Shown piece after piece: positions 4,601-48,168 of a DNA stretch of 64,000 nt (within the stretch, counting starts at the first letter, position 1; each line of letters begins with the position of its first letter). The translations under genes were made by a program, and so were the position numbers. This DNA is from a virus (Duplodnaviria; Caudoviricetes): IMG/VR virus record IMGVR_UViG_3300046779_001841, positions 192,001 through 256,000 of that record; one strand, given 5' to 3'. The notes under the pieces are model-generated. The model saw nothing but the letters and a program-made list of their open reading frames with translations, was not told the origin of the DNA and did not search any database.

Positions 4601-7600
4601 TGCAAGTTCTTCAGCTTGATCTATCTTTGGATTACTGAAAGTGTATTCTTTAGGTGGATTACCTTTCATCTTATTAAACTTTTCCATTGCTTTATGTGGG
4701 TTCAAACTGAACATATGCAAGAGAGAAATCTTATCTTTCAAATTACCGACTGCAAAATCTTTTTCTCTTTGTACAGATGCTGGGATTTCTTCTATTGGTG
4801 TGTCCGCCAATAATAAAGAATATCTATCTTTAATCTGGTTCATTTGAACAGAGATAATATCTGAAATTTCTTTATAAGCAACTGCCACTTCTTTTGGCAT
4901 ATTCACATTTGTTGTCAATTTTTGTAATGGTTGTAAAGCTACTTGACCTGCTTCTTCATAATCAACATCCATCTTATCTGCAAAATAAGCATTTTGTTTC
5001 ACCCAGTTATTAAATTGATGTCTTACTTCAGGTTTAACACCTACAAACTTGCCACCAATATTTACTGCATACTTATCCATAAATGCTTTTTCTTTAGTAG
5101 GATCGACTGGATTACCTGTTGATAAAGAAACAAATCTAAACAAATCCATAGGTGATTTTTCTAAAGCACTACCTGTTAATAAAATCTTTCTTGGATGTTT
5201 TACATTACTGATAGCTTGTGCTTTCTTTCCTTTAAGTGCTTCATTGACTTCATCAAAGATCATGCAATAATATTGTTTGAAATCAGCACCTTCTTCATAC
5301 ATTCTAACAAATTCGGTATATCCAATTTCTGTTGTTCGATTTGTTAAATTTTCAGCTACTGCTTCTTCTAAGAAGAATTTCAATTCACCCATGAAGTTAC
5401 CAACAAGACGATCTGGACCCACAATTAAAAACTTTGCATTTGGTTTTTCTTTACTTGCAAGTTGCATAGATGCAACACCAACTAAAGTCTTACCAACACC
5501 AGTATCTAATGCCATCACACCTTTAAGACCATTAGATTGTAACCATGCTAATGCTTCAATTTGTTTATTGTTAAACTTTAATGGTTTATTTGGCAATACT
5601 TCTGCTTTGAAACCACCGATTGCTTGTGGTGTAAATTTTGCTAAATTCTCTGGTTGTAAAGCACGATCTTTTTGTAAAAGCATCTTGTAGTATTTTTGTA
5701 ATTCTTCATGTGCTTTCTTAGACATTAAGCATGAACCAAGACAATCCTTGATAGCTTCATAATCATCACCTTCAAAATAGAAAGACCACCTGCGTTTTTC
5801 ACTACCAGGAACTACTTCCATTGATGCTCTTGTGTCGGATAATTTTTTAATCGCTTTTCTTTCTGGAGTATGTTTAATATCATTTGGCAAACCAATTAAG
5901 AAACGATCTCTTGCCCATGTAATATATGGTTCTTCTAAAGCATCATAATTTACTTTTACTTCACCACTATCTGTTTCGATACTTTCATAAATAGATACAA
6001 TCTCACCATTTGAACTTACAGAATAACATTTACCATCACCTGTTAATCTACCTGTTGCATTTGCCAAGTCTTCAACAGAAAATCCTTTAAAGGGTCCTCT
6101 AGTAATAATATCTTTAGTGATACCATTAATAGTAGTAGTCTTTACTTTGACCATGTGTGCAAATTTTAATGGATTTGTTCTTTTAACTGCAGTATCGTCT
6201 GATAATTCAATTTCTCTTTCAACACCAGGAATAGCATCTACCATTTCATCAGATAACTTTTCTACAGTTACAGATGGTATATTTAATTTAACTTCTGTAA
6301 AGATTGGAATAGTGTTGTTTAAAGAATCCAACTTTGGATTGCCATCACTACCCATTTCAATTTCTTGAACTGGTTGTCCATCTACCATTAAAACATTTCC
6401 TGCATTGTCTTTCTTATATACAGGCACTTTTTTAATATGTTTAAAGACGAGTTCGTGTTTCTTTACTCTTTGACCTGCTTCATTTGTAACAGTTCTTGTA
6501 ACAATCTCTGGCAAAGCATCTCTTATACTCTTATTCTTCAAATCGCTTTCTAAACGCTTTTGTTGATAAACTTCATAAGCACTTAAACGATTTTCACCTT
6601 CTATAGTGCCAAGATGTTGACTATAAATGATATTTGCTTTCTTTAAAAACTCTTCTTGTTTTTCTTTGATTTCTTGTTGAAGTGTTTTCCCATTCACGAT
6701 AGAATTTGGTTTTTCTAATTCTTTTAATTTTTTATAAGCATCAGAAATGTTTTTCTTCTTATCGTTTAACCATTCTTGTCTTTCTTGTTTTTTGGCTTGT
6801 GCAAAATTTACCCAAGACATAAGATCTTCATATCGTTCTTCTGTCTTAAGAACAGCAGAAAGGTTATTAAAAATCTCTTTATATGGTTCAAGTTCAATAT
6901 CAAAGCCCTGTGCATTAAACCATTGTTTCAAAATAAATTGATATTTACTCGCACTATCAATCTTTGATTGTTTCAATTTAGTCAATAAAGATTTTAGTGA
7001 AAATTGAACACCTGTTGGAATGCGAGGAGATATTAGATAATAATTCATTTCAATATAATTATAGATTGTTAAATCAAATTTATCGTTTTTCTCAATAATT
7101 GATTGGATGAATAAGCCTACTTGAGAATACCTTCTTTCAGTTTCTTCTTTAAGACTTCTTGTTATGGCTTTTTGATTAAAAGATAGTGCTTTATCAAGTG
7201 CAACAGATTCAGTGTCTGTAGTAAAATCTATACCTGTACCTGCTCTTGTCATGAGAGCAAGTACAGCATCGTTTTCTATAAACTTTTTCTTTCTTTGTTT
7301 TAAAACATCAGATGGAGAGATATTTTGTTCTTTATTGTTGAAATAGAGATCTAACATATCACCATCAACAGATTTATAATCTGTATATGCACCACTTCTT
7401 GATAGTTTGTCTTTAATCAAAGATTGTTCATATTGTGAATACTTTTCTTTGAGTTCTCTTACTCGTTCAAGTTGTAATACTGCATCTGTTTTTGTTTCAT
7501 GTAATGTGAAAACATCAAATTTAGCACCACTTGTTGTAAATTTCTCACTAATTTCATATGGAATATTTTTAGCTTTACAAACTAACTGAATCCATGCAGA

Positions 7601-14536: not shown

Positions 14537-14917
14537 TTAAATCTTTTCGATCTCATTTGTAATGGATAATTTATCTGTTCTATCCATCATAAACCATTCA
14601 ACACTCACTGGTTCAAATTGTGCAAATTTACCAAATACTGTTTCTTTATCAAATTCTTTACATGAATATACATCTAATTGAATAAGACCAGGACTATCTT
14701 CATCCCACACATGAATTGCAATATGTGATGTTTCAATAATTGTAACAGCTGTTAAACCTCTGTTGCCTGCTTTGTCTAAATACACTGCATGGGGTCCACT
14801 TAAAATTTTCATATCAATCGCATTGATTAAATCTTTTAACCATGTTTCAATAATATCTGTTGCCATAGGTGGCTTATTTACATAAGCACGGATTACGATA
14901 TGTTGATGTTGTAACAT
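14537..14917 (-). CDS. speD: S-adenosylmethionine decarboxylase proenzyme family (pyruvoyl-dependent)
   Basis: GLTAVTIIETSHIAIHVWDE (self-cleavage Ser) and IQLDVYSCKEFD; 126 aa fits class 1b AdoMetDC. Confidence 0.85.
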   Translation of the reverse strand: MLQHQHIVIRAYVNKPPMATDIIETWLKDLINAIDMKILSGPHAVYLDKAGNRGLTAVTIIETSHIAIHVWDEDSPGLIQLDVYSCKEFDKETVFGKFAQFEPVSVEWFMMDRTDKLSITNEIEKI

Positions 14918-14976
14918 CTATACCTTCTTTCTTAAAAAATGTTTTTTTAAGATATACAAAAAAGTTTTAATCATTA

Positions 14977-15408
14977 TTAAAATTCTAACATTCTTACTAC
15001 AATATATCCTCGCCTCCATGCTTCAATTAAATTTCTCTTTATTAAATTCATATCACCATCTACAATAAAACACTCTGGACAATCTTTATTCCTAAAATCA
15101 CACTTATTCGTATATGATGGACAACCTTTCTTTTCTACACATACACTATTCTTTATAGGCACTAATTTCAAACATCCTTTTGGATCTCTTAATCCACTCT
15201 GCATTAAACTTTTTGCATCACCTCTTAATGCACGATCTATATCTTCTTCTGATAGAACAGGCACTAACTTTTCCCAATCTTTTTCTTTTTCTAAGTCTTT
15301 ATACTCACCCCAATTACTATCATCTTTTGGTATTATTCTAGCTAGTTTTGGATTGCCATATCTTTCATCTGGTATCACACAAAAGATCATTCCATTTTCT
15401 CTATACAT
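14977..15408 (-). CDS. Hypothetical protein with Cys cluster
   Basis: 143-aa ORF in a tight operon, with C-terminal CLK..CVEKKGCP..CDF..CPEC. Confidence 0.7.
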   Translation of the reverse strand: MYRENGMIFCVIPDERYGNPKLARIIPKDDSNWGEYKDLEKEKDWEKLVPVLSEEDIDRALRGDAKSLMQSGLRDPKGCLKLVPIKNSVCVEKKGCPSYTNKCDFRNKDCPECFIVDGDMNLIKRNLIEAWRRGYIVVRMLEF

Positions 15409-15777
15409 TTAATTGTATCCTTTTTTCTTTTCTTCTATTTCTTTTACTGATTGCTCCACCATGTCTTGATCAAATATATCATGATCTGTAATTTGTTCTA
15501 AGACTTTCTTACTCGCACATAAGATATAAGATAAAATCTTTGTTTGATTTTCATCATTATTCACAATCAGTTTATGGTGTGGCAAAATATGAAACACATT
15601 TAATAACTGACCAATCTTAATCCATACTTTTAAAAGATCTTCTTCATTATCAAAATCGTTTGAACCAAAATAATATGTTTGTGCGAGTTGGCTTATTAGA
15701 TACTCAAATCCATCTTGATTAAATACATTGCTTGGCAATAAATCTCTATCATCTTCATTCTTGTCTTTCATTTTCAA
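15409..15777 (-). CDS. Hypothetical protein (probable ATG start at 15771)
   Basis: ORF overlaps the end of the primase zinc-finger gene and abuts the next gene. Confidence 0.7.
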   Translation of the reverse strand: MKMKDKNEDDRDLLPSNVFNQDGFEYLISQLAQTYYFGSNDFDNEEDLLKVWIKIGQLLNVFHILPHHKLIVNNDENQTKILSYILCASKKVLEQITDHDIFDQDMVEQSVKEIEEKKKGYN

Positions 15778-16279
15778 GTTTCCTGTATATCTTTAACCAT
15801 AGTTCTGGATCTGTTTTTTTGGCAAACAATAAAAAATCGACTGCTTCCCACAACTTTAAACATTCCTTTAAAGATAATACTTTTTCTTTTGAGATTCTTG
15901 ACAATTTATTTATTGTTTTTGTTTGCCAATCTACATCTTCATCTTCAAGATCGGTATCTTGAAACACATCTGGCTTTTCATATTCTTTCCATTCGCTTAA
16001 TCCAAATTTCTTTTCTAGCATCCTACAAGCGATACCAAAATCTACACCTTCTTTTTCCATTACTGTTGAAACAACATCTCTTACTTTTCCACAAGCAAAA
16101 CAATACCATGTTTTTGTTGAATGATAGTATCTAGCACTTGGCTTTGTATCTACACCACTACCATGCAAATCACATGAAAATTGTTGATCTGCACCATTTG
16201 TTCTTACATTATATCCATATGCACTTAGAATTTGGTCTAGTGGTACTTGATTTTTAAGTCTTTCTGCTCTTTTACTCAT
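15755..16279 (-). CDS. DNA primase CHC2 zinc-finger domain protein without TOPRIM domain
   Basis: FSCDLHGSGVDTKPSARYY...WYCFACGKVRDVVSTVMEKEGVDFGIACRML is the CHC2 pattern; the protein is only 174 aa. Confidence 0.8.
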   Translation of the reverse strand: MSKRAERLKNQVPLDQILSAYGYNVRTNGADQQFSCDLHGSGVDTKPSARYYHSTKTWYCFACGKVRDVVSTVMEKEGVDFGIACRMLEKKFGLSEWKEYEKPDVFQDTDLEDEDVDWQTKTINKLSRISKEKVLSLKECLKLWEAVDFLLFAKKTDPELWLKIYRKLENERQE

Positions 16280-16523
16280 CTTCCCTTCCTATAAATACAT
16301 TGTTAGAATTGACCCATGTGTGTTTTGGCAATGATCTTATACTAAATAAGATCATAGACTTTCTTATATTATCAGAATATATATAATAACCTTTTCCTTG
16401 TATATCACCAATACCATTTCTTTTTTGTGTAGATGATGTACTTGATAGAAATGTTGTAAATTGTTTAGCTGAATACAAACTATTAGTATCCCAATAAATA
16501 AAACAAAAAGGGTAGTTATCCAT
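16272..16523 (-). CDS. Tandem ~82-aa paralog 3 (FIGRE family)
   Basis: Shares RKSMILFSIRSLPKHTWVN..FIGREDE with both neighbours. Confidence 0.8.
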   Translation of the reverse strand: MDNYPFCFIYWDTNSLYSAKQFTTFLSSTSSTQKRNGIGDIQGKGYYIYSDNIRKSMILFSIRSLPKHTWVNSNNVFIGREDE

Positions 16524-16796
16524 TCACTCATCTTCCCTTCCTATAAATCTATCATGGTCAGTTATCCATGTGTGTTTAGCTAAAGACCTTATGGCAAATA
16601 AAGTTATTGATCTTCTTAGGTTTTCTATATTATTCTCATATATAAGGACACCTTTACCTTTAATCCTATTATCTTTATGTTGCATAGTATGGGTAGAGAA
16701 GATACTTGTATATTTTTTAGCATGGTATATGTCGTTATTCTCATAATACACAGAGAAGATAGCTTTAGACATAGGTGTTATTCCCTTCCTATAAAT
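16274..16796. repeat. Direct repeats at the 3' ends of the three tandem paralogs (~250-bp period)
   Basis: actcatcttcccttcctataaat at 16274-16296 and 16526-16548; ttcccttcctataaat at 16781-16796. On the minus strand the repeat encodes FIGRE and provides a GGAAGG Shine-Dalgarno for the next gene. Confidence 0.85.
16524..16772 (-). CDS. Tandem ~82-aa paralog 2 (FIGRE family)
   Basis: RRSITLFAIRSLAKHTWITDHDRFIGREDE. Confidence 0.8.
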   Translation of the reverse strand: MSKAIFSVYYENNDIYHAKKYTSIFSTHTMQHKDNRIKGKGVLIYENNIENLRRSITLFAIRSLAKHTWITDHDRFIGREDE

Positions 16797-17023
16797 TTGT
16801 TATTGTCATTTATCCAATTATGCTTAGGTAGAGATCTTGCACTAAATAATGCGATTGATCGCCTTATGCTATCTGTATTTGTCTTGTATATAAACACACC
16901 ATTTGTATAGCTTGACTGTTTGGCGTGTGTAGTATGGTTATTTGAAAAAAGACAAGTCCATTGTTTTGCCTCAAATAAACCATTAGCATTGCAATAAAAG
17001 AAAGCAATAGGATGATTATCCAT
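16778..17023 (-). CDS. Tandem ~82-aa paralog 1 (FIGRE family)
   Basis: RRSIALFSARSLPKHNWINDNNKFIGRE. Confidence 0.8.
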   Translation of the reverse strand: MDNHPIAFFYCNANGLFEAKQWTCLFSNNHTTHAKQSSYTNGVFIYKTNTDSIRRSIALFSARSLPKHNWINDNNKFIGRE

Positions 17024-17043
17024 AGTGTTTATTCACTTTCTCA

Positions 17044-18552
17044 TTAAATCACATCTGTTAATGGATCTGCTTTTGCATTACCTGTTAATGGCAATAAAGT
17101 CAAATTATCACTATTCGTGATTTTACCTGCTGGAAATAAAATGTTCGCATTAAATGTTGGAAATCCTGCTTGATCTCTACTCTTTAAACATTGATACTTA
17201 ATTTGCTTCTGCTCTCTTACATCATTCCCAAACCAATTCGCTATCACTATATCTGCACTTCTTTCTGCTTCATTCGCATAAGACAAGTGTGTTAATTGAT
17301 ACTCTCCATTCTTTTTAAGTGCATCATTATAACCATCACGACTGATTTGGAATAAACATAAAACAGGTATTCCTTGACCACGATTAAAATTCATTGCCAT
17401 TCTCTTCAAATCTCTAATCACTTCATTTAATCGTTCTGTAGTAGATCCATATTTTGTTCTACTTGCCAATAACAAAGCATGATCGACTACTATCAAGTCT
17501 ATCTTTTCTTTTTGACTTAACAATTCTGCTTTTGCTCTTAAATCTTCTACTGTAAAATCAAAGCTATCTGGATTATCACCTTCAATATGGATTGCTCCAT
17601 ATTCTCCACTTTCTCTACATTTCTTTAAATCTGGTACAACATGATTAAAAAAGAAATCTTTTTCTTCTGGTGTTAATTTACCACCACGAACTTTAGATGG
17701 GTCAATACCTTCATAGACTTCTACATTAGGTTTTTGTAAACCTAATGCTATTCTTACATTCTTAAATTTCGCATGACAAGAATGAATACAATAGATAGAT
17801 CGTCTTACTTGTGGATAGTGCATTTCTAATGAGAAATATAGTGTATTGGTTTTATCCCAAGTTGCTTGACTATATGCCCAATTTAATGCTGTTTTAGATT
17901 TAGCATGACCTGTAAATCCTGCAAGAATATACAATTCTTTCTTTCTAAATCCACCTATCGCATCATCTATGATTTTAATTCCTGTTGTAGGAATAACTTC
18001 TCTACCGGCCTCTTCAGCTTTGGTATATTCTTCTGCAAGATCATCTACATCTGTTAAAACTTCACCACCTAATTTTGATCCAAATGTTGGGGTCATAACA
18101 TCTACAAGTTTATTCGATAAGAAACGACCAGCATCTCTTGCACCTTTAAGTAGTGTTTTATGATTGCCTTTTTCTTTAATTTCCAATCCACTTTTAATAA
18201 TGGTTTTCACATCTGTGATGGTATTAGAAAGTTTAATAATTCTTGCTTCTTCTACATGGTTTTCGATTTCTGTTAAAAAATTTCCTTTGTAGATAGGTGT
18301 TATTGATGCTAATGCACGAACACGATCTGAACATTCAAATTCATTTTGTGTTTCAAAAAATTGAATAATGGTTTGATGATCTGGCAAATGTCCATGATTT
18401 GACATAAATCCTTTGATATAAGACCAAATCGCATTATCTTCTTTTGCTTCAAAATTAAATATGCTCTCTCTCAATGCCATGTAATTCATTTGCATTTGAT
18501 TAATATCATCACCTAGTCTTTGATCAGGTAAAATACTTCTTAAGATTTTCAT
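17044..18552 (-). CDS. dnaB: Replicative DNA helicase, DnaB-like
   Basis: IPTTGIKIIDDAIGGFRKKELYILAGFTGHAKS (variant Walker A), YFSLEM, LIVVDHALLL, LCLFQISR, ERSADIVI, CLKSRD. Confidence 0.88.
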   Translation of the reverse strand: MKILRSILPDQRLGDDINQMQMNYMALRESIFNFEAKEDNAIWSYIKGFMSNHGHLPDHQTIIQFFETQNEFECSDRVRALASITPIYKGNFLTEIENHVEEARIIKLSNTITDVKTIIKSGLEIKEKGNHKTLLKGARDAGRFLSNKLVDVMTPTFGSKLGGEVLTDVDDLAEEYTKAEEAGREVIPTTGIKIIDDAIGGFRKKELYILAGFTGHAKSKTALNWAYSQATWDKTNTLYFSLEMHYPQVRRSIYCIHSCHAKFKNVRIALGLQKPNVEVYEGIDPSKVRGGKLTPEEKDFFFNHVVPDLKKCRESGEYGAIHIEGDNPDSFDFTVEDLRAKAELLSQKEKIDLIVVDHALLLASRTKYGSTTERLNEVIRDLKRMAMNFNRGQGIPVLCLFQISRDGYNDALKKNGEYQLTHLSYANEAERSADIVIANWFGNDVREQKQIKYQCLKSRDQAGFPTFNANILFPAGKITNSDNLTLLPLTGNAKADPLTDVI

Positions 18553-28786: not shown

Positions 28787-29854
28787 ATGAAACCTACTCT
28801 TGATATTAGTCAATTTACTCAACTCGCTACAGGCGAACTTTTTCAAATGTACAGTAATGAAGTTTCTAATGGTGCTTATCCTGTTGATACTTCTGATCCT
28901 GTTGCTCGATCTTATTCTCCTTTTGTTCTTTATATTGAACCACCAGATGTTATCTTTCCTAGAGTAGTTAGGAAACAAAGTGAAATCTCTTCTACTAAAA
29001 TTCCACCTTTTGCATCACCTTTACGAAATCGTGCTTATCTTGCCACGAATGTTAATTCTCTCAATGGTGCTTCTATTTCTTCTAATGCTAGAAATCCTAT
29101 CTATTCTTTTAATAGTCAAGTTACTGAAAATAATACTTCTCAAGCTGGGCTTTCCGATAGAGATGTTGCACTAGATATTATTGATCAATACAAACAACTT
29201 AGAGATTTACCTCCAATGGTCTTTTTAGTCAATCCACAATCTTTAGGCTTGTCATATAATAAAGTTCAACAATATAGTGAAAGAACTCGATTTGGTTATG
29301 TCTTTCAAGCATGGGGTGAAGAATTACCTGATCTTGATGTTCAATGTAAATCAGGTGCTTATATTGCTTATGGTGATTCTAGTAAAACTGCTACTGGTTT
29401 ACAATTCGCATCTATGAGAGATAGTGCTAGTTTTAGACAAATCCTTGCTATCCTTGCCATGTATCGCAATGGTGCTACTATTCGTGATCGTGTTGGTAGA
29501 TCTGAAGTCATACATGAAGTCGGTCGCTTTGTTATTGAATATGATGGTACTCGATATAAAGGCACTCTTGAATCCTTTGAATATGGTTATGATGAAACAC
29601 AAATGTTAGGTGGTATGGATTTTTCTTTTAAAATGAAAGTCCATGAAATGACTTATTTTGAACCAACTAAGATACAGAATAAAGCTACACCTAAAATTTC
29701 TTTTGATTCAGAAAACATCGAACTCAATCAAGATATTCTTGAAGATAATCAAACTACTAAACCTGTTGGTACAGGTGTTTTACTTCCTACTGAAGAAAGC
29801 CAACAAACTCAAGTTAATGCTTTGTTTAATTCTTCTTTCCAACAAGGACAATAA
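28787..29854 (+). CDS. Putative tail tube initiator / baseplate protein, paralog of 28190..28783
   Basis: MVFLVNPQSLGLSYNKVQQYSERTRFGYVFQAWGEE aligns with the previous gene. Confidence 0.55.
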   Translation: MKPTLDISQFTQLATGELFQMYSNEVSNGAYPVDTSDPVARSYSPFVLYIEPPDVIFPRVVRKQSEISSTKIPPFASPLRNRAYLATNVNSLNGASISSNARNPIYSFNSQVTENNTSQAGLSDRDVALDIIDQYKQLRDLPPMVFLVNPQSLGLSYNKVQQYSERTRFGYVFQAWGEELPDLDVQCKSGAYIAYGDSSKTATGLQFASMRDSASFRQILAILAMYRNGATIRDRVGRSEVIHEVGRFVIEYDGTRYKGTLESFEYGYDETQMLGGMDFSFKMKVHEMTYFEPTKIQNKATPKISFDSENIELNQDILEDNQTTKPVGTGVLLPTEESQQTQVNALFNSSFQQGQ

Positions 29855-29855
29855 T

Positions 29856-32800
29856 ATGAGTACAACCACTAAAGGCACTAGCTTTATCAATACTTCAAGA
29901 ATTGAAAATAGACCTTATGCTGGATCTTGGAAACCTAATTTTAGAAAAGTCCATACTTGGTCACCCGATGCTCTTGTTTATATTAATGGTGATACTGCTT
30001 TAATTGGTTGCCAAGAATGTAAAAACAAAATCGATTTTCAACCTTTCATCACTTCTGTTAATGTTGAAGCTGGTAACACATCTTCATCTTCTTCATCTTC
30101 TATTAATTTCTCTATTCCCAAGCATCATGGTGATAGCATTTTTAAAGATGGTACTTTTATCTTATGTGTTGGTCTTGAAGTCAATGTTTATTATCGTGGT
30201 TATTTTAATGTTCAAAACCTTTTAGAATCCGAAACACTTGATTATGGTGATGAAGTTTATGATTTAGCTGATCTACAAATGAAACCTTATTATCCTGTTT
30301 TTCATGGTGTTGTCACTAATGTTTCTTATTCTTATAGTGGTGGCTTTTATACTGGTTCTCTTTCTTGTAATGGTTTGTTACACTTTTGGCAATATCAACA
30401 TATTGTCACTCAAGCGGCCGCACTCGAATCTATTCCAAATGCTCAAATGCAACCAACAGGTCATGTTTTCACTGGATGGACACCACATCAAATTATCAAA
30501 TATTTGTTTAAAGATCGTGGTGGCGCTCAAAAAAATGATCTTGGCTTTGGTATCAATAATGCTACTAATTTGTCTTCTCAAGGTGGTGATGAACTTTGGC
30601 AACAAGCACTTCAATATTGGGAAACTAGATTTTCTCAAGGTCTTTATAATTTAAGAATGTATGGTGCAAGTGGTAATCTTCTTTCTAATGGTGCAGATGC
30701 TTATATTGATACTCTTATTGTTCAAAGTGGTGCTTTAAGTCCAAGATCTCAAAATGGTCTTCCATCTATGAACTCGCAACAAAAAATTGAAAATACACTC
30801 GATCCTAAAGTTCTTAGACAATATGATTTAATTGAAATTCCTTTGACTGGTACAGATCCAGAACAAATCCAACCTTTCACTTTAGATGTTGGTCAAGTTG
30901 GTCAATTAGATTCTTATCAATCTACTTATGAAACTAAACTTGGTATTGCAGATACTGTTGTTGAAAAAACTAATTGGGAATTTTTTCAAGATGTAGATGG
31001 TGATCTTGTCTTTAAACCACCTATGTTTAATCTTAATGTTAAAGGCAATCGTGTCTATACTATTAAACCTGAAGATATTATTGATATTGGTTTTTCACAA
31101 AAAGAACCTAATGCTACTTATGTTGTTTGTAAAGGTAGTGTTATGGGAAACATGGGTGGTGTTGTAGATAATCAACAAATTACACCACAAGCACAATATG
31201 TTGATTATCGTCTTGTTGCTAAATTTGGTTGGCGTGAAAACCAATTCGATGCTACTCATATCAAAGATCCTAAATCTGCTTTTTATATGGCAAGTGCAAG
31301 ACTTGATCTTTTAAATAAAGATGTAGAAGGTTGTACTTTAACTATTCCACTTAGACCAGAATTAAAACCAGGCTATCCTATCTATATTGAACACATTGAT
31401 TGTTTCTATTATGTAGATTCAGTCAGTCATTCTTTTTCATTTGGTGGTGATTGCAATACATCTTTAACACTTGTATGTAGACGAAAGAAATTTATATTGC
31501 CTGGTAGTGCAAATACATCTTATGCACAAGATAGCAGTAAAGCGATTGATCTTGCTAATATTTCTCAACCAAGTAAATATCTAAACACTTTAGATTCTGA
31601 AGGTAATATTCGTGTTACTGGATTTCCTAATGTTGTTATGGCAATAGATCAAACTAAAATCAATCCTGCATCTTTACCTAGTGGTCAAGATAATATTGAA
31701 ATCACTACTCCAGAACATCTTAATATGCTTATTCTTGAAGCACACAATGCTGGTATTTTACAAATCGCACCACAAGCAAGTAGTGATTTAGGTAAAGGCA
31801 ATCCTTTATTTACGGGTCCATTCTTTGTTAGAAATCCTGCATCTACAGATGGTGAAGGTGAAATCATTGGTATTCTTGATCTTAAAGACACATCAAATCA
31901 AATATCATCACAAGCGAACATAACACCAAATAGTAATAATAATGCAGTGCAACCTAAAGACACTTCTATTAAAGCGAATGATAAAGATCTAAATGAAATC
32001 AGTGCAGAACAACTTAAAGTTCAAAATGTAGAACCTATCGAACTTATCAATAATAGTGATACTACAAGTGGATTAGGTCAACAACAAACAGTCGCAAATC
32101 AAAAAGTAACATTAAAACAATTAATCGAACTTGTTAAGTCATATAGATCTTCTAACACCACTGCTTTTGGTCAAGGTAGTAAAGCAAATATTCTTGCCAA
32201 TCTTGCTACACGAAAATCTACTTTTGGTGGTGCGATTGCTGGTCATTATAGATATTATAGTTGCTCTCATCCAGATGTTCAAATGCAAGGTGCTATTGAA
32301 ATTTCAGTAAAGAAAGGCAAGATTGATTTTAAACAACCACCTTTAATAGAACCTAAACCTAATCTCAAAAATGTGAATGTTGTTTTACCAGATCCTACTA
32401 CTGCTAATGATGGTAATCTTATTGAATTTGTAGACGATCCAAATTTTGTTAAAACAGGTATTCGCATTTTTAAGAATATTGGCGAACCACAAGAAATTGT
32501 ACCTACAAGTGAAATCAAAGGTCTTGCTTTTCAAAAAGTCGATTTGGAATATCCTACTACTGTTATTACAGATCAAACACAAGGCACTCCTATGGGAAAA
32601 ATGCTTGGCATTTCTTATTCTCAAATTGCCAAAATTGTTCGTGATCAATTATTCAGTAATGGCAGACCTTTACTTAGACAAAATAAGATTAGTGTTAATG
32701 ATCCACAAATCAATAAAAAAATCACTGAAGCATTATTTGATCCAACCAAAATAGATGATGTCAGTGAAGATATTTTAAAAGCATATGCAGATGGTTCTTT

Positions 32801-34322
32801 ATGTGATGGTGATGGTTCTTCTCTTGTAGGTGATTACATAGAAGTTAATGGTGAAGGTATTCAAAGAATAATGTCTGTTGCGATAAGAGAATGGTCAAGA
32901 AATATTTATGATGCACCTGTTGCAAATGAGAATGGACTTAGTAAAGAACAAGCTAGAAATCATCCAGCTAATATACAATGGAGTACAACACCAAGTAAAC
33001 AGTATATAGATATATATACAGGACAAGATTATCGTTTTGATTGTCAAGTCGCATGGTGTGGCTTATTTGCACAATATTGTATTAAAGAAAGTGGTGCAGT
33101 TAAACCAAGTGTTTATAGTGGTGGTTTTCTTGGTGGTTGTAGTGGTATCTATTCTAAATGGGGCAACACACCTAGATTTTTTAATTTCTATCAAAACAAA
33201 AACACTGAAATCAAAGTGGGTGATATTGTCATCTTTAATGGTATTGATAGTAACACTGGACTACCTACTCAAAATTCAAGTGATTATGGCAAACATATCG
33301 CTTTATGTGCAGAAGTACATAAAGATTTTATTATCTGTATAGATGGTAATTCTCTTGGTGAACATCCTGATGGTAAAAAAGGTTCTGGTGTTGTTAAAAC
33401 TAAAAGAAGTAAAGATATTATATGGTATCTTTATCGTTTCCTACCTGAAGATTTTATTCCACTAACACAAACAAATCAATCTAATCCAAATGATAGTGTA
33501 TATAAGATTAAACTTAACAATGTTGTTACCAATCTTATGACTAAACTTGAATCAAAACATACTGTTCTTGCAGATCTTAAAAAAGCTAAAGAAAATACAC
33601 AAGCCATTCAAAAGATTTTTAATGATCAAGGTGTAAATATAGAGAAACTACAAACAGATTTAAAAATTCTTTTAGATCGCATTGGTGGTTTCAAACTTAC
33701 ACCAAGCAATAGTTTTACTGCAGGTGAAGGTCAATATAATAATGATCCTACTGTTATGCCAGTATTTCCTGTTTCTGATGAAAATGGTTATGAAGTGTTT
33801 GGTAGTTATCCTTATGGTCGTGGTCTTACTTTAAGAAAAGGTGGTACTTTTGAAAAACTTTTAAAGAAAGATAAAACATCATCTGTATCTTTAGAAGATA
33901 CAAAAGAAGATATAGCTGGTAGTGAATTGGCAAATATCACTATTCAAGAAAGCAATAACACAATAAAAAATGCAGTCAGTTCGGATGTCAATCTCAATAA
34001 AGAAATGGCATCAAATATAATTGATAGTGGTCTTGCTAATCAGCCAGTCAATCAAACTGCAGTGGATCAAGGTCTTATTATTGAAACAGTGCCAAAGCGA
34101 CTACAAGATATTATTCCAAACTATGATAAAAAAGGTGCAGTTTGTGATTGCAGATCTTATGATAGAGATTTACAACTTTTAGGTATCAGTTTAGATGGTG
34201 CATATAATTATGTAAATGTTGGTCAAGAACAACTTGTAAAGAAAATGGCAAATGATAATTTCTCTAAAGCAGAAGTTTGGATTTCTAACCAAAAACAATT
34301 AATAGGCGGTGAAAAGAAATGA
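29856..34322 (+). CDS. Baseplate hub (gp27/gpD-like) with inserted CHAP/NlpC-P60-like cell-wall hydrolase domain
   Basis: ATG 1 nt after the upstream stop. Hub pattern WEFFQDVDGDLVFKPP..GCTLTIPLRPELKPGYPIYI; AWCGLFAQYC..KVGDIVIF..GKHIAL..IDGNS gives a Cys/His amidase signature. Confidence 0.7.
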   Translation: MSTTTKGTSFINTSRIENRPYAGSWKPNFRKVHTWSPDALVYINGDTALIGCQECKNKIDFQPFITSVNVEAGNTSSSSSSSINFSIPKHHGDSIFKDGTFILCVGLEVNVYYRGYFNVQNLLESETLDYGDEVYDLADLQMKPYYPVFHGVVTNVSYSYSGGFYTGSLSCNGLLHFWQYQHIVTQAAALESIPNAQMQPTGHVFTGWTPHQIIKYLFKDRGGAQKNDLGFGINNATNLSSQGGDELWQQALQYWETRFSQGLYNLRMYGASGNLLSNGADAYIDTLIVQSGALSPRSQNGLPSMNSQQKIENTLDPKVLRQYDLIEIPLTGTDPEQIQPFTLDVGQVGQLDSYQSTYETKLGIADTVVEKTNWEFFQDVDGDLVFKPPMFNLNVKGNRVYTIKPEDIIDIGFSQKEPNATYVVCKGSVMGNMGGVVDNQQITPQAQYVDYRLVAKFGWRENQFDATHIKDPKSAFYMASARLDLLNKDVEGCTLTIPLRPELKPGYPIYIEHIDCFYYVDSVSHSFSFGGDCNTSLTLVCRRKKFILPGSANTSYAQDSSKAIDLANISQPSKYLNTLDSEGNIRVTGFPNVVMAIDQTKINPASLPSGQDNIEITTPEHLNMLILEAHNAGILQIAPQASSDLGKGNPLFTGPFFVRNPASTDGEGEIIGILDLKDTSNQISSQANITPNSNNNAVQPKDTSIKANDKDLNEISAEQLKVQNVEPIELINNSDTTSGLGQQQTVANQKVTLKQLIELVKSYRSSNTTAFGQGSKANILANLATRKSTFGGAIAGHYRYYSCSHPDVQMQGAIEISVKKGKIDFKQPPLIEPKPNLKNVNVVLPDPTTANDGNLIEFVDDPNFVKTGIRIFKNIGEPQEIVPTSEIKGLAFQKVDLEYPTTVITDQTQGTPMGKMLGISYSQIAKIVRDQLFSNGRPLLRQNKISVNDPQINKKITEALFDPTKIDDVSEDILKAYADGSLCDGDGSSLVGDYIEVNGEGIQRIMSVAIREWSRNIYDAPVANENGLSKEQARNHPANIQWSTTPSKQYIDIYTGQDYRFDCQVAWCGLFAQYCIKESGAVKPSVYSGGFLGGCSGIYSKWGNTPRFFNFYQNKNTEIKVGDIVIFNGIDSNTGLPTQNSSDYGKHIALCAEVHKDFIICIDGNSLGEHPDGKKGSGVVKTKRSKDIIWYLYRFLPEDFIPLTQTNQSNPNDSVYKIKLNNVVTNLMTKLESKHTVLADLKKAKENTQAIQKIFNDQGVNIEKLQTDLKILLDRIGGFKLTPSNSFTAGEGQYNNDPTVMPVFPVSDENGYEVFGSYPYGRGLTLRKGGTFEKLLKKDKTSSVSLEDTKEDIAGSELANITIQESNNTIKNAVSSDVNLNKEMASNIIDSGLANQPVNQTAVDQGLIIETVPKRLQDIIPNYDKKGAVCDCRSYDRDLQLLGISLDGAYNYVNVGQEQLVKKMANDNFSKAEVWISNQKQLIGGEKK

Positions 34323-41909: not shown

Positions 41910-44900
41910 TTATTGATTTTTAAAATACCTTCTTGTGAATAAGACCAAGATCATTAGCATAAACAATAAATTCGCTGTGTGATCTATATTCTGGCAACTA
42001 CCACCTTGAAATTTTGTCTTTTTAGTTGTGCCTTTGTCTTCATACATTATAGGATACATATCATCTAGTGGTTGCACTTTCATGTCTTTAATCATTTGAT
42101 CTAAAAGCATATCAATATCTTTATCTACTCGCATATCATTTTCTATACTCATATCATTTTCTTGAACATTAAGATTATTGTCACTTAACACTCGTATTCT
42201 AAATGACTGTTCTGTTCTACCACCATCATATAGATAATGATCATCACTTCCTTGATAATCTAATGCGATCAAATTTACACTCGCTTCTGTTCCTGCTAAA
42301 TTTGATGCTACTCTCCATTCTAATCTAAATAAATTCTCATCTATCTGTTCGATTGTCATTTCTGTTGGTGACCCTGCACCTAATTTCACTTCAATCAAAT
42401 CAAACTTTCCTTGATCTTTCACTTGTATATCATATTTATATATCCTACCTGCATAAGCTATTGTATCTGGCAAACTAATAAATACTGGTGCAGTGTTTGT
42501 GACATGAACTCTAATCTTGTTATAGTAACCAAATGGTGAAATCATTTTAATCGTGTAAATACCATCATCTTCAAATAAATATGATACTTCTTCTCCATGC
42601 TTATCCACTTCATTTTCCAGCAACCATAAATAATCACTCGTTTCATCTGTTTCAAGATTACAATTTTCCAAATTCACTTTTGGATTATCTATTTCTGTTG
42701 CACTTAATACTACACAACGACCTTCTTCACTTTGAATATTATCCACTGTTAATAACCATGCTTCTACATCTACTTGCTTGATTATTTCTGTTGTTGTATT
42801 TGACCACTCATCATGTATTAATATTTTCACTGGCATTACACCTGCTCTATGTGCTTCATATATTTGATTACCACTCCAACTTCTTTCTCTCTCAAACACA
42901 CCATCATTCTCAAAATCTATCGTATATAACAAGTCATCTACATCTATGTCATTTGCCATAACATTTAATGTTAATACACCATCATCTTGCCATACTTGAA
43001 CTTCATTTAATTCTGTTGGATGATTTACTACTTGGATTTCTTTTGTAAAAATTTCCGATTGTCTGTTTGATGTGAAACCTTTAATCTTTACTAGATATGG
43101 TGTTTCTTTCCACTCATATTTATGTTCAAGAGAATTATTGACTACACCATCATTCCAATCCACTTCATAGTTAAGAAATAAAGTATCACTGATTACTCTT
43201 AAATTTACTAATCCACCTGCACCTATCTCTACATCTACATCCGAAATCAAAGGTGTTGGTTGTGGTTCAATTACAATAGAAATCTCTGTTTCTACATTTG
43301 ACCAAGTATCTTTGACTTTAAGATATAAGGTATGTTGCTGATTTACATCTAAATCAAAGATCTCTAAATTTGTTCTTTCTTCATATTCTTGATCTGCATT
43401 TACTTTCCAATAATATTTTAAGACACTTGTATCTGGATCTGTTGCATTTACTACAATTAGATAACTACCACCTGCTAATAAATGTTTATTCATGTTTAAG
43501 ATTGTAGGTGCATCTGGAATAATAATCTCTGTAATTCTTGAAGTGCTTAAACCATTTGTGTCTTTAACTGTTATTAAAGCAGGATAAGGTTCTGTTCGAT
43601 AAGGTAAATCAAAATCTAATTGTGTATATGTATTACCATTCACTTCTACTATATAAGATAACTCATCATTGTTTGGATCTTTGGCATCTACAATAAGCCA
43701 ACATTTACCTGCATATCCTATGAGATTTGTGATCGAATTAATCATAGGTGCTTGGTTTTCCATGAAGTTTAATGTTTCTAATATTTGTTGTGATTGCGAA
43801 CCACGACTATCCATTACACTCACACTTGGAGTAAAACTACCATAAGATGTATATGTATACACAAATATGCCAGTGTTATTTGTTATAGACGAACTACCAT
43901 CACCTGCATTAAATACATATTGCAAACTATCATTATCCATATCAGTCGCATTTACAAACACTGTTATCGTATTTGTGTTTTGTGTTACATCTACATCTAA
44001 AACTAATGGTGCTTGATTAAAAGTATTTAAATTGACTTGATATTCTCTCTCTAAACCTAAATTGTCTTTTACTATAATGCGAACTGGTGTTTCATCACTT
44101 GTAGCTTTAAATGTATATGTATTCAAACTACTATTCACTACTTCTACATAAGCAATATCATTTATATCTATTGTGTAAGATAAGCTATTCGCCTTGTTAA
44201 ATGAATATGCTTGACTATATAGACTACTTGTATCTGAACCATCAAATGCACTTACTGTAAAAATACCAGTGTTTAGACTTACTATATATGGTGTAATAAA
44301 TGGTGGTGTATCTACAACAATATTGTCATTAAAAGTAGCAGTGATGAATGGATCAAAATCTGTTATTGTTGCAATACCTTTTACTTCGATCATTGGATTT
44401 GGTTCTGCATAGATTTGTATCTCATAGAAACCATTACCTTGTTTTTCTATTTCTACTGATGAAATAATTGGACTTAAATTTCTATGCTCAACTAAAAGAC
44501 TTTCTATCACTGGTGGAATATTTGGCACTTCTACATATATACTTTTTGTTGATACTAGACCACCACTATCAGTAGCAGTCACTTTAATCGTATCTATTCT
44601 ATAACCATCGCCTACAGGTATATATTCATACACACCTGTTGCGATTTCATTAAAACTACCTTGACCTGATATAACTTCTACTTGATAAGACACATTTAAA
44701 TTCTCAGGATCAAAAGATTGATTAAGATCTATGAGATTATTCGATACTGTTTCTACAATGACTGGTGGTTGAGTATTTGGCAAAATATTTACGATCACCG
44801 AACCAAAAGAACATAAAGAACAATCTGTTTTTTCTACACCATCAAGACAACTATCTGTCCATTGACCATCATCACAAATTTTAAAAGGAATAGATATTTT

Positions 44901-47063
44901 AGATAGATTACTTGGTAAAACATAAGATGCTTCTTGTTGTGTAAATACACCATCAAGATTGCTATCAAATTCCACTGATGAAATGAAATCTCTTGGATGA
45001 TTACCAAAAGGATCTTGATTTACATCTGCATCATAAGAAGAGTTAGCATTTAAAGTTAAAGTTTGACCTGTATATCCAGTAAAGATTTCAGTGATTGGAA
45101 CAGGTGCATGATTATATTTGCTTATGCTTATAGATACTGCATCTACATCATCTACAATTCGATTAAGATTATCTATTGTTCTAAGTGTTACTTTTTGTTT
45201 AAGTGTTTGACCCCAATCTACATTATTTGTGTAGGTATATGTAAATTTTTCATTGATGTCATTTGTTGTGAAATCCCAGATTGTTTCATTTTCGTCAACA
45301 ATAAGGTTCTTATTTATATCTTCATTGCAGTTATTAATCTCATTTATGGAACAATCGGGTAAAGTATGATCTATATGGTCGATCACATTCCATTTAAATG
45401 TAGTAATGCTTACTTCTGGATCAAGAACATAAGACCATGAATGATCAAAAGTAACAGTATTGTTAGGTGAAATAAGTTGTGGTGTTGCTTTGGCATAAGG
45501 TTGAACTTCTAACCAAGATTGAATAATTTGTGTAATAACAGATGTTCTTTCATTAGTAGAGAAAGAACCACTCCAAAGCCAATTACCAGTCCAAGTCCAA
45601 GTACCATTTGTTTGTTGTTTAGAAGAACCATTAGAATTTTTATTTGGATTTTTTCCAGTGATAAAGAAATCAGTAAATTCATTTGACCAATGAATACCAT
45701 TTGGCAAATAAGTTATTTCTGGTGAAAAAGATCTAAGACCTTTTGTAGAAGCGTAGATATAGTAAAGACCCCAATGGTTACTATCAGTAAGATACCAAGA
45801 TTGGATAGCATTAATAGAATTATTAACTTGTGCATTTGTGTTTAAGTCCTCGTTTTCAGTCCATCCATAACCAACAAGTGTATTACCTGCTAGTTTGCCA
45901 TTACCATTACCATCATAATAACATATACCATTTGGACAATAAAGTGACAACCAATCTCTTTGTTTTGTTTTAAAAGTTTCATAATCTACATTATTAAATT
46001 TTCTTTTAAGAATACGAATAGCTTCTGGTGCCCAACCATTTGTTGAAGCATCATCTGTTGCACCAGCAAGATTACTGCAAGTATAAAACCATGCACCATC
46101 TGAAGTAGTGCATTGTAAAAGACCATCAATAATATCTTGACCAATATTTTTAAGATCTACACCAAAGATACCTTGCCTACCTACAGGTGAAATATAAGAA
46201 GAATTACCAAAATTTGCCAAAGGTTCTGACCATGCAGTCGATTCATAACTTGACCAAAAGAAAGCATTAAGATTATTTAATGCTACAAATTCCATTCCTT
46301 TACCTGCATTACCTAAAACATCAGTATCTGTAAATCCTATGTTCTTTAATTGCATTGTAGATAAAATAGAATGTAATCCACATTGTGTAAGATGTCTATA
46401 ATATGGATCGTTATCTTTATTTAAACCAAAACCATGTCCTCGTCTTAGAAAAGCATTTAAAGCCATACCTGTAGAATATAATGTTTGATTGCCAGGTACA
46501 TAACATAGGTGTTCATTATGACCAAGAGAATCATTTCCTTTATGAATAGCTTGTCTAAACAAATACCATAAAGCTATATCTACTGCACGACTAGAATAGA
46601 TTTGTCTTGTTAAATTAAGATTGCCATCGTTCGCATTACAATTCGCATTTAAAGGATCGTTGTAGTAATTATTGCAAATACGATCTACATGGATAAGAAC
46701 AGGCATGATAGCAGATGCAATTTCATTACCACAAGACACTTCTACTTTAGGATATATATAAGTGTTACCTAAAACATTTGGATATTGATATGAGAGATGA
46801 AGTGGTGCAAAAAAAGGATTGCCAGTGATTGAGATACTTGTTTCACTCGCATCATCAAAATCACCATCACCATTTACATCCCATCGATAAGAATAAGATG
46901 CACAATTACCACCTTCAACAATAGCTTGTAAATGAGTAGGCAAACCATTTAGTGCGATATGTGGAATATCTGGATTAGATTGCACATAAGGAATAGTAGA
47001 TACTTTTAAAGGTTCAGCATAAAGAGAACTGAATAAAAGTAGGAATATAAGCAGGTATTTCAT
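41910..47063 (-). CDS. Large secreted cell-surface protein: prenyltransferase/squalene-cyclase-like barrel, PKD/Ig-like repeats, MYXO-CTERM-like anchor
   Basis: Signal peptide MKYLLIFLLLFSSLYA; AVDIALWYL, DGAWFY, YYIYASTKGL, QQTNGTW motifs; repeated NQAP/YxWxxxxDG/GDGSS units; DM-rich linker; GGSCQ plus hydrophobic helix plus RR at the C-terminus. Confidence 0.7.
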   Translation of the reverse strand: MKYLLIFLLLFSSLYAEPLKVSTIPYVQSNPDIPHIALNGLPTHLQAIVEGGNCASYSYRWDVNGDGDFDDASETSISITGNPFFAPLHLSYQYPNVLGNTYIYPKVEVSCGNEIASAIMPVLIHVDRICNNYYNDPLNANCNANDGNLNLTRQIYSSRAVDIALWYLFRQAIHKGNDSLGHNEHLCYVPGNQTLYSTGMALNAFLRRGHGFGLNKDNDPYYRHLTQCGLHSILSTMQLKNIGFTDTDVLGNAGKGMEFVALNNLNAFFWSSYESTAWSEPLANFGNSSYISPVGRQGIFGVDLKNIGQDIIDGLLQCTTSDGAWFYTCSNLAGATDDASTNGWAPEAIRILKRKFNNVDYETFKTKQRDWLSLYCPNGICYYDGNGNGKLAGNTLVGYGWTENEDLNTNAQVNNSINAIQSWYLTDSNHWGLYYIYASTKGLRSFSPEITYLPNGIHWSNEFTDFFITGKNPNKNSNGSSKQQTNGTWTWTGNWLWSGSFSTNERTSVITQIIQSWLEVQPYAKATPQLISPNNTVTFDHSWSYVLDPEVSITTFKWNVIDHIDHTLPDCSINEINNCNEDINKNLIVDENETIWDFTTNDINEKFTYTYTNNVDWGQTLKQKVTLRTIDNLNRIVDDVDAVSISISKYNHAPVPITEIFTGYTGQTLTLNANSSYDADVNQDPFGNHPRDFISSVEFDSNLDGVFTQQEASYVLPSNLSKISIPFKICDDGQWTDSCLDGVEKTDCSLCSFGSVIVNILPNTQPPVIVETVSNNLIDLNQSFDPENLNVSYQVEVISGQGSFNEIATGVYEYIPVGDGYRIDTIKVTATDSGGLVSTKSIYVEVPNIPPVIESLLVEHRNLSPIISSVEIEKQGNGFYEIQIYAEPNPMIEVKGIATITDFDPFITATFNDNIVVDTPPFITPYIVSLNTGIFTVSAFDGSDTSSLYSQAYSFNKANSLSYTIDINDIAYVEVVNSSLNTYTFKATSDETPVRIIVKDNLGLEREYQVNLNTFNQAPLVLDVDVTQNTNTITVFVNATDMDNDSLQYVFNAGDGSSSITNNTGIFVYTYTSYGSFTPSVSVMDSRGSQSQQILETLNFMENQAPMINSITNLIGYAGKCWLIVDAKDPNNDELSYIVEVNGNTYTQLDFDLPYRTEPYPALITVKDTNGLSTSRITEIIIPDAPTILNMNKHLLAGGSYLIVVNATDPDTSVLKYYWKVNADQEYEERTNLEIFDLDVNQQHTLYLKVKDTWSNVETEISIVIEPQPTPLISDVDVEIGAGGLVNLRVISDTLFLNYEVDWNDGVVNNSLEHKYEWKETPYLVKIKGFTSNRQSEIFTKEIQVVNHPTELNEVQVWQDDGVLTLNVMANDIDVDDLLYTIDFENDGVFERERSWSGNQIYEAHRAGVMPVKILIHDEWSNTTTEIIKQVDVEAWLLTVDNIQSEEGRCVVLSATEIDNPKVNLENCNLETDETSDYLWLLENEVDKHGEEVSYLFEDDGIYTIKMISPFGYYNKIRVHVTNTAPVFISLPDTIAYAGRIYKYDIQVKDQGKFDLIEVKLGAGSPTEMTIEQIDENLFRLEWRVASNLAGTEASVNLIALDYQGSDDHYLYDGGRTEQSFRIRVLSDNNLNVQENDMSIENDMRVDKDIDMLLDQMIKDMKVQPLDDMYPIMYEDKGTTKKTKFQGGSCQNIDHTANLLFMLMILVLFTRRYFKNQ

Positions 47064-47166
47064 ATTTACCTCGTCAAAGAAAAAGTCTTAAACAAAGTAA
47101 AAACATTTAAAGTTTAATAAATGATTTATTTTAAAAGTCTTTGTTAAAAAACATTTAAAATAAAGG

Positions 47167-48168
47167 ATGGTAAAAATGGCTGTTCATTATGTAGATATAA
47201 CCAAAGACGATTTAGAGAATTGGTTGGATAGTTTAGGTAAAAAATGGACAAAAGATGTCACAAAAGCAGGTATTTATTACATACATTTATCAAATACTGT
47301 TGCTGTTAAACTATCAAGTACTTTGTCTGGCACTCAAACAACAATGGATTATGCCAAAGCATCAATGAAGTTATCTTTAGTAAGTTTGGTAACAAAGAAA
47401 CTCTTAAATAAGAAAGATGCAGATCGTTCGCATTTTAAGAGAACTACAAATTGGAAAACAACATGGAAAGAAGGTGTTGATCATTGGGAATCCGTGTATA
47501 AAAATGCCAAAGGTTTTTATGATCGTATATCAGTAGTAGAAGACCAAGAGCAATATAAAGAAAATTGGTTATCTAAAATAGAGAGTGTTCAAAATTGGGA
47601 AAGTGTTTCTATCTTATCTCAATTACATAATAAGGTGCAAACAGGCACGATTTTAAGTCCAAATCAAGAAGGTGCGATTCTTAAATTTGTTAAGAATGTA
47701 AGATCAGTGCCAACACCTGTTGTGGAAGAATCAAGAACACCAGTATCATCTTATAAAGAAGAATGGTTATCTAAGATAGAAATTGTTCCAAATTGGGAAG
47801 ATATAGATTTCTTATCACAAGTACATGATAAAGTGTTAAGAGGTGTGAGATTAAGTCCAAATCAAGAAAATGCCATTCTTAAATTTGTTAATAATGTAAA
47901 ATCAAGGTCAAGACCTGTCCATGTAGAACAACAAAGACCTGTAATGCAACAAAGACCTGTTCATGTAGAGCAACCTGCAACACAAGTACATTTTACACCA
48001 GAGCAACAAAGAGCAATGGCAAGATTAGAAGCATTAGTAGAAGTAGCAAGTCCAGTGGATTCAACTTTTACACTGATCATGATCAATAAAGCTAAAAAAG
48101 GCATTAAGTTGTCTGATGAAGAAAAACAAAAACTTATTGGCTTATTAAGACAATATAACATTCAATAA
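47167..48168 (+). CDS. Hypothetical protein with two ~66-aa internal repeats (start may be 47176)
   Basis: YKENWLSKIE..LSPNQEGAILKFV and YKEEWLSKIE..LSPNQENAILKFV. Confidence 0.75.
   Translation: MVKMAVHYVDITKDDLENWLDSLGKKWTKDVTKAGIYYIHLSNTVAVKLSSTLSGTQTTMDYAKASMKLSLVSLVTKKLLNKKDADRSHFKRTTNWKTTWKEGVDHWESVYKNAKGFYDRISVVEDQEQYKENWLSKIESVQNWESVSILSQLHNKVQTGTILSPNQEGAILKFVKNVRSVPTPVVEESRTPVSSYKEEWLSKIEIVPNWEDIDFLSQVHDKVLRGVRLSPNQENAILKFVNNVKSRSRPVHVEQQRPVMQQRPVHVEQPATQVHFTPEQQRAMARLEALVEVASPVDSTFTLIMINKAKKGIKLSDEEKQKLIGLLRQYNIQ

Follow-up and report, generated by a model that had tools for sequence, protein, structure and literature searches.

Why would a phage carry a gene for an exported protein of 1717 residues that ends in a tail resembling MYXO-CTERM, a sorting signal of myxobacteria? 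The question is raised by a 64,000-nt stretch of virus DNA (the window in what follows; positions 192,001 to 256,000 of IMG/VR record IMGVR_UViG_3300046779_001841), in which gene P0001 runs on the minus strand from 47063 down to 41913 according to the open reading frame (ORF) list and its translation. The original prediction, a model's reading of the letters, had the ORF, its length and its coordinates (41910-47063) right and left out the strand. A single contig of 316,221 bp (31% GC) contains the window, and we treat this contig as phage because of its matches to tailed-phage PHROGs (portal, E 2e-32; head maturation protease, E 1e-14; structural/tail protein, E 2e-85), its classification as a virus in IMG/VR and its CheckV completeness of 100%. 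The gene is most likely the 'A' half of a two-part module, taken from Myxococcota and kept by a lineage of low-GC freshwater jumbo phages. With reasonable but not high confidence, we further think that the host, by way of its myxosortase pathway, displays this host-derived TraA/TraB-like envelope module on the infected cell.

The tail of P0001 consists of F1685-Q-G1687-G-S-C1690-Q, seven residues (NIDHTAN), a hydrophobic helix LLFMLMILVLFT (L1699-T1710) and RRYFKNQ, which opens with R1711-R1712 and is a weaker basic end than the RRRR of cellular tails; the motif, helix and arginine pair are as originally predicted, and the spacer is shorter than the nine residues given there. As in MYXO-CTERM proteins, the helix is free of charged residues and Pro and is followed by an Arg tail, and the whole stands at the extreme C-terminus of a protein whose N-terminus carries a signal peptide. 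The Gly/Ser-rich signature ahead of the helix, GGSC, has a single Cys, not the frequent GCGC. Across 17 collinear sequences whose tails line up in register, G1687 and C1690 never vary and F1685 hardly does, and the signature Cys is also invariant in all 29 cellular tails. The F-x-G...C pattern persists in phage relatives sharing only 38-53% overall identity, whereas the adjoining linker changes freely. We built a tail profile from the 29 cellular tails alone and ran it against the C-termini of the 669 phage ORFs: P0001 came first of the 669 with E 0.04, the next phage ORF following at E 0.6, and the tail of P0018, from the same phage clade, had E 0.002. The P0001 tail is unique among the ORFs of this genome. 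From its residues and register, we take the P0001 tail to be a diverged MYXO-CTERM.

Best-hit taxonomy, a check that the original prediction had proposed, gave Myxococcota for every named cellular homologue. Homologues were found at 33 loci in species-representative genomes (the named ones include Bradymonadia, Nannocystaceae and 'Myxococcales', and several come from lakes). For genome G001 and its relatives, a search of 41 genomes found the family in 23, a single genome giving up to 8 matched places. The myxosortase core model NF040914 (cut-off 100 bits) scores 137-150 bits in all five homologue-carrying source genomes tested; no CPBP protease is encoded by the phage. One family copy, in metagenome-assembled genome O_MB67 (L020:5878-11527), is split by a frameshift near residue 470-500, and the same assembly holds an intact fused form (L003). 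L020 was rejected as a close relative of P0001 (54% in the best segment), being a frameshifted cellular copy with high identity confined to the toroid domain described below.

The main addition to the original prediction is that the cellular genes come with a partner. In two cellular genomes (L039 and L040) the gene directly 3' of the homologue, after a gap of 22 nt or 1 nt, encodes a protein of ~670 aa with TSP3 repeats, OmpA and SPOR domains. In P0032 and P0035 both proteins are fused; the seam keeps an internal tag (FAGTGHGPxGC, helix, basic stretch), and behind it come a second signal peptide and QDLQLF, the start of the mature partner. Of the NCBIfam models, TraB matches the partner best (E 1e-58 and 1e-67 in the cellular proteins, 1e-34 for the one on contig L037, which aligns to positions 11-480 of the 522 in the model, and 1e-16 for a copy in our phage, P0052). 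The scores of 60-228 bits (60 for P0052) are far below the equivalog cut-off of 700 bits, so the partner is a TraB paralogue, not TraB itself. TraB has a signal peptide, a barrel, TSP3 repeats and an OmpA domain, and forms 1:1 complexes with TraA (PMC3325183, PMC12045341, PMC11980579). P0052 has the layout of this family: a signal peptide ending SYA/QDVQNF (the slash marks the putative cleavage site), a Phenol_MetA_deg barrel (26 bits, cut-off 22), TSP_3 and an OmpA-like end (22.8 and 19.8 bits, both below cut-off), and similarity to NF033763. It shares ~33% identity with the cellular partners (E 1e-75 to 1e-79); its close relatives are 65-81% identical and ~475 aa long, after which identity jumps down to cellular proteins at 37% or less, those with informative names belonging to Myxococcota or 'Deltaproteobacteria'. 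The phage thus has homologues of both halves. A complex prediction of partner residues 19-476 with P0001 residues 1440-1690 scored 0.00, which speaks neither for nor against binding. The analogy to TraA drawn in the original prediction is borne out in that a TraB-family protein, of which the phage has a copy, accompanies the cellular genes or is fused to them, and not for P0001 itself: TraA identity was rejected, as P0001 contains neither a PA14-like domain nor the Cys-rich TIGR04201 repeats (Pfam, NCBIfam) and its head is a toroid.

The gene is kept under purifying selection in the phage. Between P0001 and P0003 (78% identical), the ratio of nonsynonymous to synonymous substitutions (dN/dS) is 0.19 at a dS of 0.73; by part, it is lowest in the toroid (0.11-0.16), higher in the linker (0.27-0.34) and ~0.5 in the tail. 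With this ratio and a large family of homologues, the gene is far beyond a chance ORF. The closest relatives of P0001 (38-99% identical) are on phage-like contigs with 31-36% GC, one of them 300,949 bp long, where the neighboring genes include DNA polymerase A, ThyX, methylases, KilA-N and VapE. The phage-context homologues form one clade (Shimodaira-Hasegawa-like approximate likelihood ratio test 100, a support that shared low-GC composition may inflate), and the ~1700-codon frame is intact in at least nine of its diverged sequences. The gene was found in freshwater and lake metagenomes of ~9 independent studies. The flanks of P0003 and P0004 (L066 and L067), which are 67-78% identical to our gene, contain wholly different neighboring genes, so the gene moves or is retained as a single-gene unit in a variable region. 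A scan of viral contigs with P0001 returned no relatives, and in a collection of phage isolates P0001 matched PKD domains in Salinibacter phages alone and the partner matched nothing.

We modelled the protein with AlphaFold2 in two parts, residues 1-860 (36-sequence alignment; predicted local distance difference test (pLDDT) 89.3, predicted template modelling score 0.86) and, separately, residues 845-1717 (pLDDT 79). Table 1 lists the features. At the start of P0001, MKYLLIFLLLFSSLYA/EP looks like a Sec signal peptide, and a signal peptide had been predicted; the N-terminus is hydrophobic in all homologues, and the model has a low-confidence helix at residues 3-10. The N-terminal beta-sandwich contains an invariant motif, W-D-x-N-x-D-x-D-x-x-D (residues 61-71; window 46851-46883), which resembles a calcium-binding loop. 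Next comes an (alpha/alpha)6 toroid with the family motifs YRHxTQCGLH, GQDLADGL and DASTNGWAPEALR, and three more sandwiches close a conserved N-terminal module of ~850 residues that is 42-44% identical even where the C-terminal halves differ. Of the stalk that follows, only one unit (residues 1026-1093; window 43785-43988) is found by Pfam, above the gathering cut-offs of both PKD_4 (PF18911; 35.7 vs 27 bits) and PF00801 (31.9 vs 23.5 bits); the remaining beta-sandwiches are visible in the AlphaFold2 models alone, from which we count a predicted total of ~12-13 immunoglobulin (Ig)-like units where about ten PKD/Ig-like units had been proposed. The DM-repeat linker noted earlier appears in the model as a disordered acidic, Met-rich stretch, after which a terminal helix is placed at ~1696-1716.

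Table 1. Features of the P0001 gene, its upstream region and related loci (window coordinates unless another sequence is named)
Feature	Coordinates	Strand	Basis
Whole gene, exported multi-domain protein P0001	41910..47063	-	ORF list and translation; stop codon 41910-41912
Putative signal peptide, residues 1-16 (MKYLLIFLLLFSSLYA/EP)	47016..47063	-	read by eye
N-terminal beta-sandwich, residues ~20-125	46689..47006	-	AlphaFold2 model; columns invariant in alignment A1
(alpha/alpha)6 toroid head, residues ~149-514	45522..46619	-	most conserved part of the protein
Three beta-sandwich domains, residues ~525-846	44526..45491	-	AlphaFold2 model; invariant Cys C730, C748
Stalk of 8-9 Ig/PKD-like beta-sandwich domains, residues ~853-1627	42183..44507	-	AlphaFold2 model
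Disordered acidic, Met-rich linker, residues ~1629-1684	42012..42179	-	pLDDT 30-39; variable among relatives
MYXO-CTERM-like tail, residues 1685-1717	41913..42011	-	alignment with cellular tails, own profile; C1690 codon 41994-41996
Upstream region shared with divergent gene at 47167	47064..47166	-	sequence
TraB-like partner P0052, 476 aa	genome 87727-89157 = L042:349-1779 (outside the window)	+	homology to cellular partners
FGE-sulfatase-fold arrays	L036:2900-9849, 15729-17589; L037:1-2973, 4945-5886, 14847-17016

Alignment A1 has ~60 family-invariant residues (9 of them Cys), and these, together with the invariant motifs, would suit an extracellular binding or catalytic head. The neighbors of the head by protein language model are 'prenyltransferase/squalene oxidase repeat' proteins (scores 0.81-0.86, to be taken as leads only), and secreted toroids of this kind and the class II terpene cyclase fold (1gsz, 8zg0; the exported YPO2471, 7tem) are among the closest known systems. 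P0001 differs from them in having no Pfam match to these families, its own invariant motifs and no conserved DxDD, and a PDB sequence search found no relative of it. Two candidates for the toroid were rejected: a class II terpene cyclase of the squalene-hopene cyclase type (the general-acid motif DxDD is not conserved) and the thioester (TED) domain of complement/alpha-2-macroglobulin (the thioester motif CGEQ is absent). With the defining motifs of terpene cyclases and thioester domains missing, an enzymatic role is unsupported, so that of the originally proposed alpha/alpha-barrel-like enzymatic domain the fold is seen in the AlphaFold2 model and the enzyme lacks support. The sandwich-plus-toroid module also occurs in other phyla (ESM Atlas), and in one ESM Atlas toroid cluster 74% of the members end in PEP-CTERM.

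From these observations, and from the published sorting pathway (PMC11980579, PMC3325183, PMC12045341), we infer the following course for export, cleavage, surface display and pairing. The signal peptide would direct P0001 through Sec, and the C-terminal helix would retain it in the inner membrane with the arginine pair on the cytoplasmic side; the host's MYXO-CTERM machinery would then lipidate Cys1690, its myxosortase would remove the helix, and the type II secretion system would bring the protein to the cell surface. There, ~12 Ig-like domains would project the sandwich-plus-toroid head tens of nanometres from the cell. P0052, the 'B' half, is most likely the outer-membrane partner, to which the 'A' half might bind. 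Because the genome also carries this TraB-like partner, the phage probably re-equips the surface of the infected cell. The likely purpose is altered adhesion or recognition by that cell, as with TraA/TraB; receptor block against superinfection is our second choice.

Several results weigh against this reading. P0001 fails membership of the curated MYXO-CTERM family, because NCBIfam gives no match for the protein or its tail: TIGR03901.2 (cut-off 20 bits) matched neither the whole protein nor the isolated tail at E up to 10, and the match to our own profile (E 0.04) is weak. Among the 33 homologue loci (44-75% GC) and 20 sampled relatives of G001 (49-73% GC), no low-GC Myxococcota host was found (all have at least 44% GC, against the 31-36% of the phage and its relatives). 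By portal protein, the phage is closest to an uncultured 485-kb phage (LR745208.1; 71% identity), in which neither envelope gene was matched by tblastn of the phage collection. Next come Tunturiibacter phage Tunturi_5 (308 kb), the nearest cultured one, which infects an Acidobacteriota host and is only 37% identical, and then Bacillus phage G (26%). In the OmpA domain of the phage-clade partners, the GHTD..N and GYGE..NRRVEF segments, kept in all cellular partners, are deleted or replaced. In our phage 145 kb separate the A gene from the B gene, and L037, with one gene between the two, is the sole other phage contig with both within the flanks covered.

Failure of TIGR03901 does not bar a protein from being a myxosortase substrate, since P0019 (encoded at L029 in genome G001) also fails it in a genome whose myxosortase scores 140 bits. 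Four high-GC cellular homologues pass the model (P0011, 29.2 bits; P0015, 20.7; P0025, 26.0; P0033, 23.1), and the moderate-GC cellular clade (P0017, P0029 and P0019) fails it like the phage protein; the author of the model describes the MYXO-CTERM domain as short and highly divergent. The originally predicted MYXO-CTERM-like tail therefore stands as a tail in register with those of cellular homologues, four of which pass the model, and falls short in that the phage tail itself has no match. Of the findings that the original prediction named as speaking against it, none was made: no other sorting class scored (PEP-CTERM, GlyGly-CTERM, JDVT-CTERM, Synerg-CTERM, CGP-CTERM and LPXTG had no NCBIfam match to the tail at E up to 10), and there was no PHROG virion match to the protein. 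Large differences in GC between phage and host have a precedent in Mx1 (~50% GC in a host with ~68%; PMC6070905). The Myxococcota host to which the original prediction pointed is an inference only.

We consider it unlikely that P0001 is only tethered to the inner membrane of a non-myxobacterial host, its tail being a plain anchor and its action periplasmic, for example on envelope polymers. Such a role would fit the lack of a curated sorting model matching the tail, the wide difference in GC from every known family carrier, the dN/dS of the tail (~0.5) and the degenerate OmpA domain of the partner, which could mean that the original system is decaying. It leaves unexplained that F-x-G...C persists in phage relatives 38-53% identical while the linker next to it varies, and that both halves of a surface module are retained; a stalk of ~12 domains would also be hard to fit in a periplasm tens of nanometres wide, and the GC gap loses force with the Mx1 precedent.

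Display for superinfection exclusion or protection of progeny, in which the phage copy replaces or masks a host A/B receptor, is a doubtful alternative. The T5 lipoprotein Llp masks FhuA in this manner. The phage keeps a homologue of each half of a host surface complex, and a partner without peptidoglycan-binding motifs is what one might expect of a decoy or dominant-negative copy. Nothing points to A/B as a receptor, however, and the toroid, as the most conserved part (dN/dS 0.11-0.16), better fits a binding or catalytic activity than mere occupancy.

That P0001 is a virion protein, a tail fibre or decoration that binds the host via its Ig-like domains and toroid, is very unlikely. Virions often carry Ig-like domains and P0001's fold matches among viral proteins are Ig-domain proteins, a large ORF with weak tail and CHAP matches lies 7.6 kb away, and an upstream palindrome is common to putative late genes. 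A signal peptide and a C-terminal membrane helix are ill-suited to assembly in the cytoplasm, however, the viral fold matches are limited to generic Ig domains with no PHROG match beside them, and in cells the homologues are surface proteins encoded on the chromosome, with a partner in the outer membrane. The location of the gene argues the same way: it lies at 234-239 kb of the genome, next to genes for GMP reductase, a C5 methylase and a UvrD helicase, and the portal, head protease and tail/structural genes were identified at ~47-68 kb and 280-300 kb. A roleless passenger recently acquired from a host, which the differing flanks among close relatives (mobile, single-gene behavior) might suggest, is hardly credible given a frame of ~1700 codons intact in at least nine diverged phage-context sequences, a GC content that matches the phage, and a dN/dS of 0.19 at dS of 0.73-1.3, selection data that come close to refuting it.

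Some other features of these genomes were observed. The portal gene is at L043:16497-18230 (minus strand; genome 296496-298229), and Pfam Terminase_6N had no match in the phage genome. The large ORF near our gene (1554 aa; window 29658-34322, plus strand) has a weak CHAP match (E 0.001) and a tail-protein PHROG match (E 6e-4) and is flanked by ORFs of 1261 and 740 aa, large and without family match; this block may be tail- or lysis-associated. On two relatives' contigs, paralogues of ~300 aa with an FGE-sulfatase fold stand in tandem around the big gene (7+2 copies in L036; 5 upstream and 2 downstream in L037). The four L036 copies inspected all begin MLENLR(R/K)KSLV and diverge towards the C-terminus, and in the cellular relatives P0039 and P0045 the N-terminal module is fused to the same FGE-sulfatase domain. 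The arrays and fusions suggest a functional link or a diversified binding set; the phage of P0001 has one small FGE-like ORF only (genome 15745-16146), distant from the gene. Small genes for Hc1 (histone H1-like, PF07432) are also found near the big gene on two related phage contigs (L001:3591-3788, L036:1981-2175).

The upstream region of P0001 contains a Shine-Dalgarno sequence (GAGGT) 4 bases ahead of the ATG and two copies of TTTAAATGTTTTT..AAGACTTTT; TTTAAATGTTTTT was considered as a genome-wide promoter motif and rejected, as the repeat proved local. The palindrome ATAAATGATTTAT, of the form ATAAAT(C/G)ATTTAT, is at 47117-47129, ending 53 nt before the ATG of the gene and 37 nt before the divergent gene. 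Five copies were observed in the genome vs 0.28 expected, three of them 51-52 nt ahead of leader-tagged genes beginning MISQK..., and the palindrome is absent upstream of the relatives' genes. The region may be an operator or promoter element.

Among known systems, the outer-membrane-exchange receptor pair TraA/TraB of Myxococcus xanthus is the nearest in design: two genes, for a protein with signal peptide, head, stalk and MYXO-CTERM and for a partner with signal peptide, barrel, TSP3 and OmpA, presumably sorted by the same pathway (myxosortase, then the type II secretion system). The phage family differs in its head (beta-sandwich and toroid, as compared to PA14) and stalk (Ig/PKD-like domains, as compared to Cys-rich TIGR04201 repeats), and the module here is phage-encoded, with unlinked genes and a degenerate OmpA domain. 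MXAN_5598-type fusions run from an adhesin through an internal MYXO-CTERM to an outer-membrane barrel and OmpA (PMC11980579); P0032 and P0035 have exactly this layout, whereas the phage halves are separate genes. Myxosortase-dependent surface enzymes (M36 metallopeptidases, NF038112) likewise have a long PKD-like stalk ending in MYXO-CTERM (the stalk of P0011 scores 295 bits) but another head, no peptidase domain being present in our family. Huge phages have been described to encode sortase B with PXTG-tagged substrates, and beta-barrel/OmpA-type outer-membrane proteins (Yuan & Chen, bioRxiv 10.64898/2026.10.24.761521, October 2026; Myxococcota are unmentioned in this preprint). There too, a phage protein meant to be shown on the surface of the host begins with a signal peptide and ends in a tag of motif, helix and basic tail, but the tag is Gram-positive and the sortase phage-borne, as compared to a Gram-negative cysteine tag and no phage sorting enzyme here. 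We found no paper describing a phage-encoded MYXO-CTERM protein or TraB-like partner; new here are the phage's own unlinked partner, in which the OmpA domain is degenerate, together with an analysis of selection and formal tests of family membership.

If our reading holds, it extends surface display by huge phages from the Gram-positive sortase type to a Gram-negative lipid-anchor type that relies on a host enzyme, assigns a host, in a way open to testing, to an uncultured group of phages present in many lakes, and supplies naturally occurring tags, highly diverged, for finding out what myxosortase recognizes. A bolder version, which we regard as a long shot, is a contact system run by the phage, in which the receptor pair of infected cells binds neighbors with the host version or other infected cells. 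If true, fresh hosts would be tethered to a lysing cell, or outer-membrane contact and exchange would spread phage-made envelope proteins, a viral 'greenbeard' working through a bacterial kin-recognition design. MYXO-CTERM sorting and TraA/TraB-type pairs are known only as chromosomal myxobacterial systems for cell contact and kin recognition, and viruses may be interfering at this level of social behavior in bacteria.

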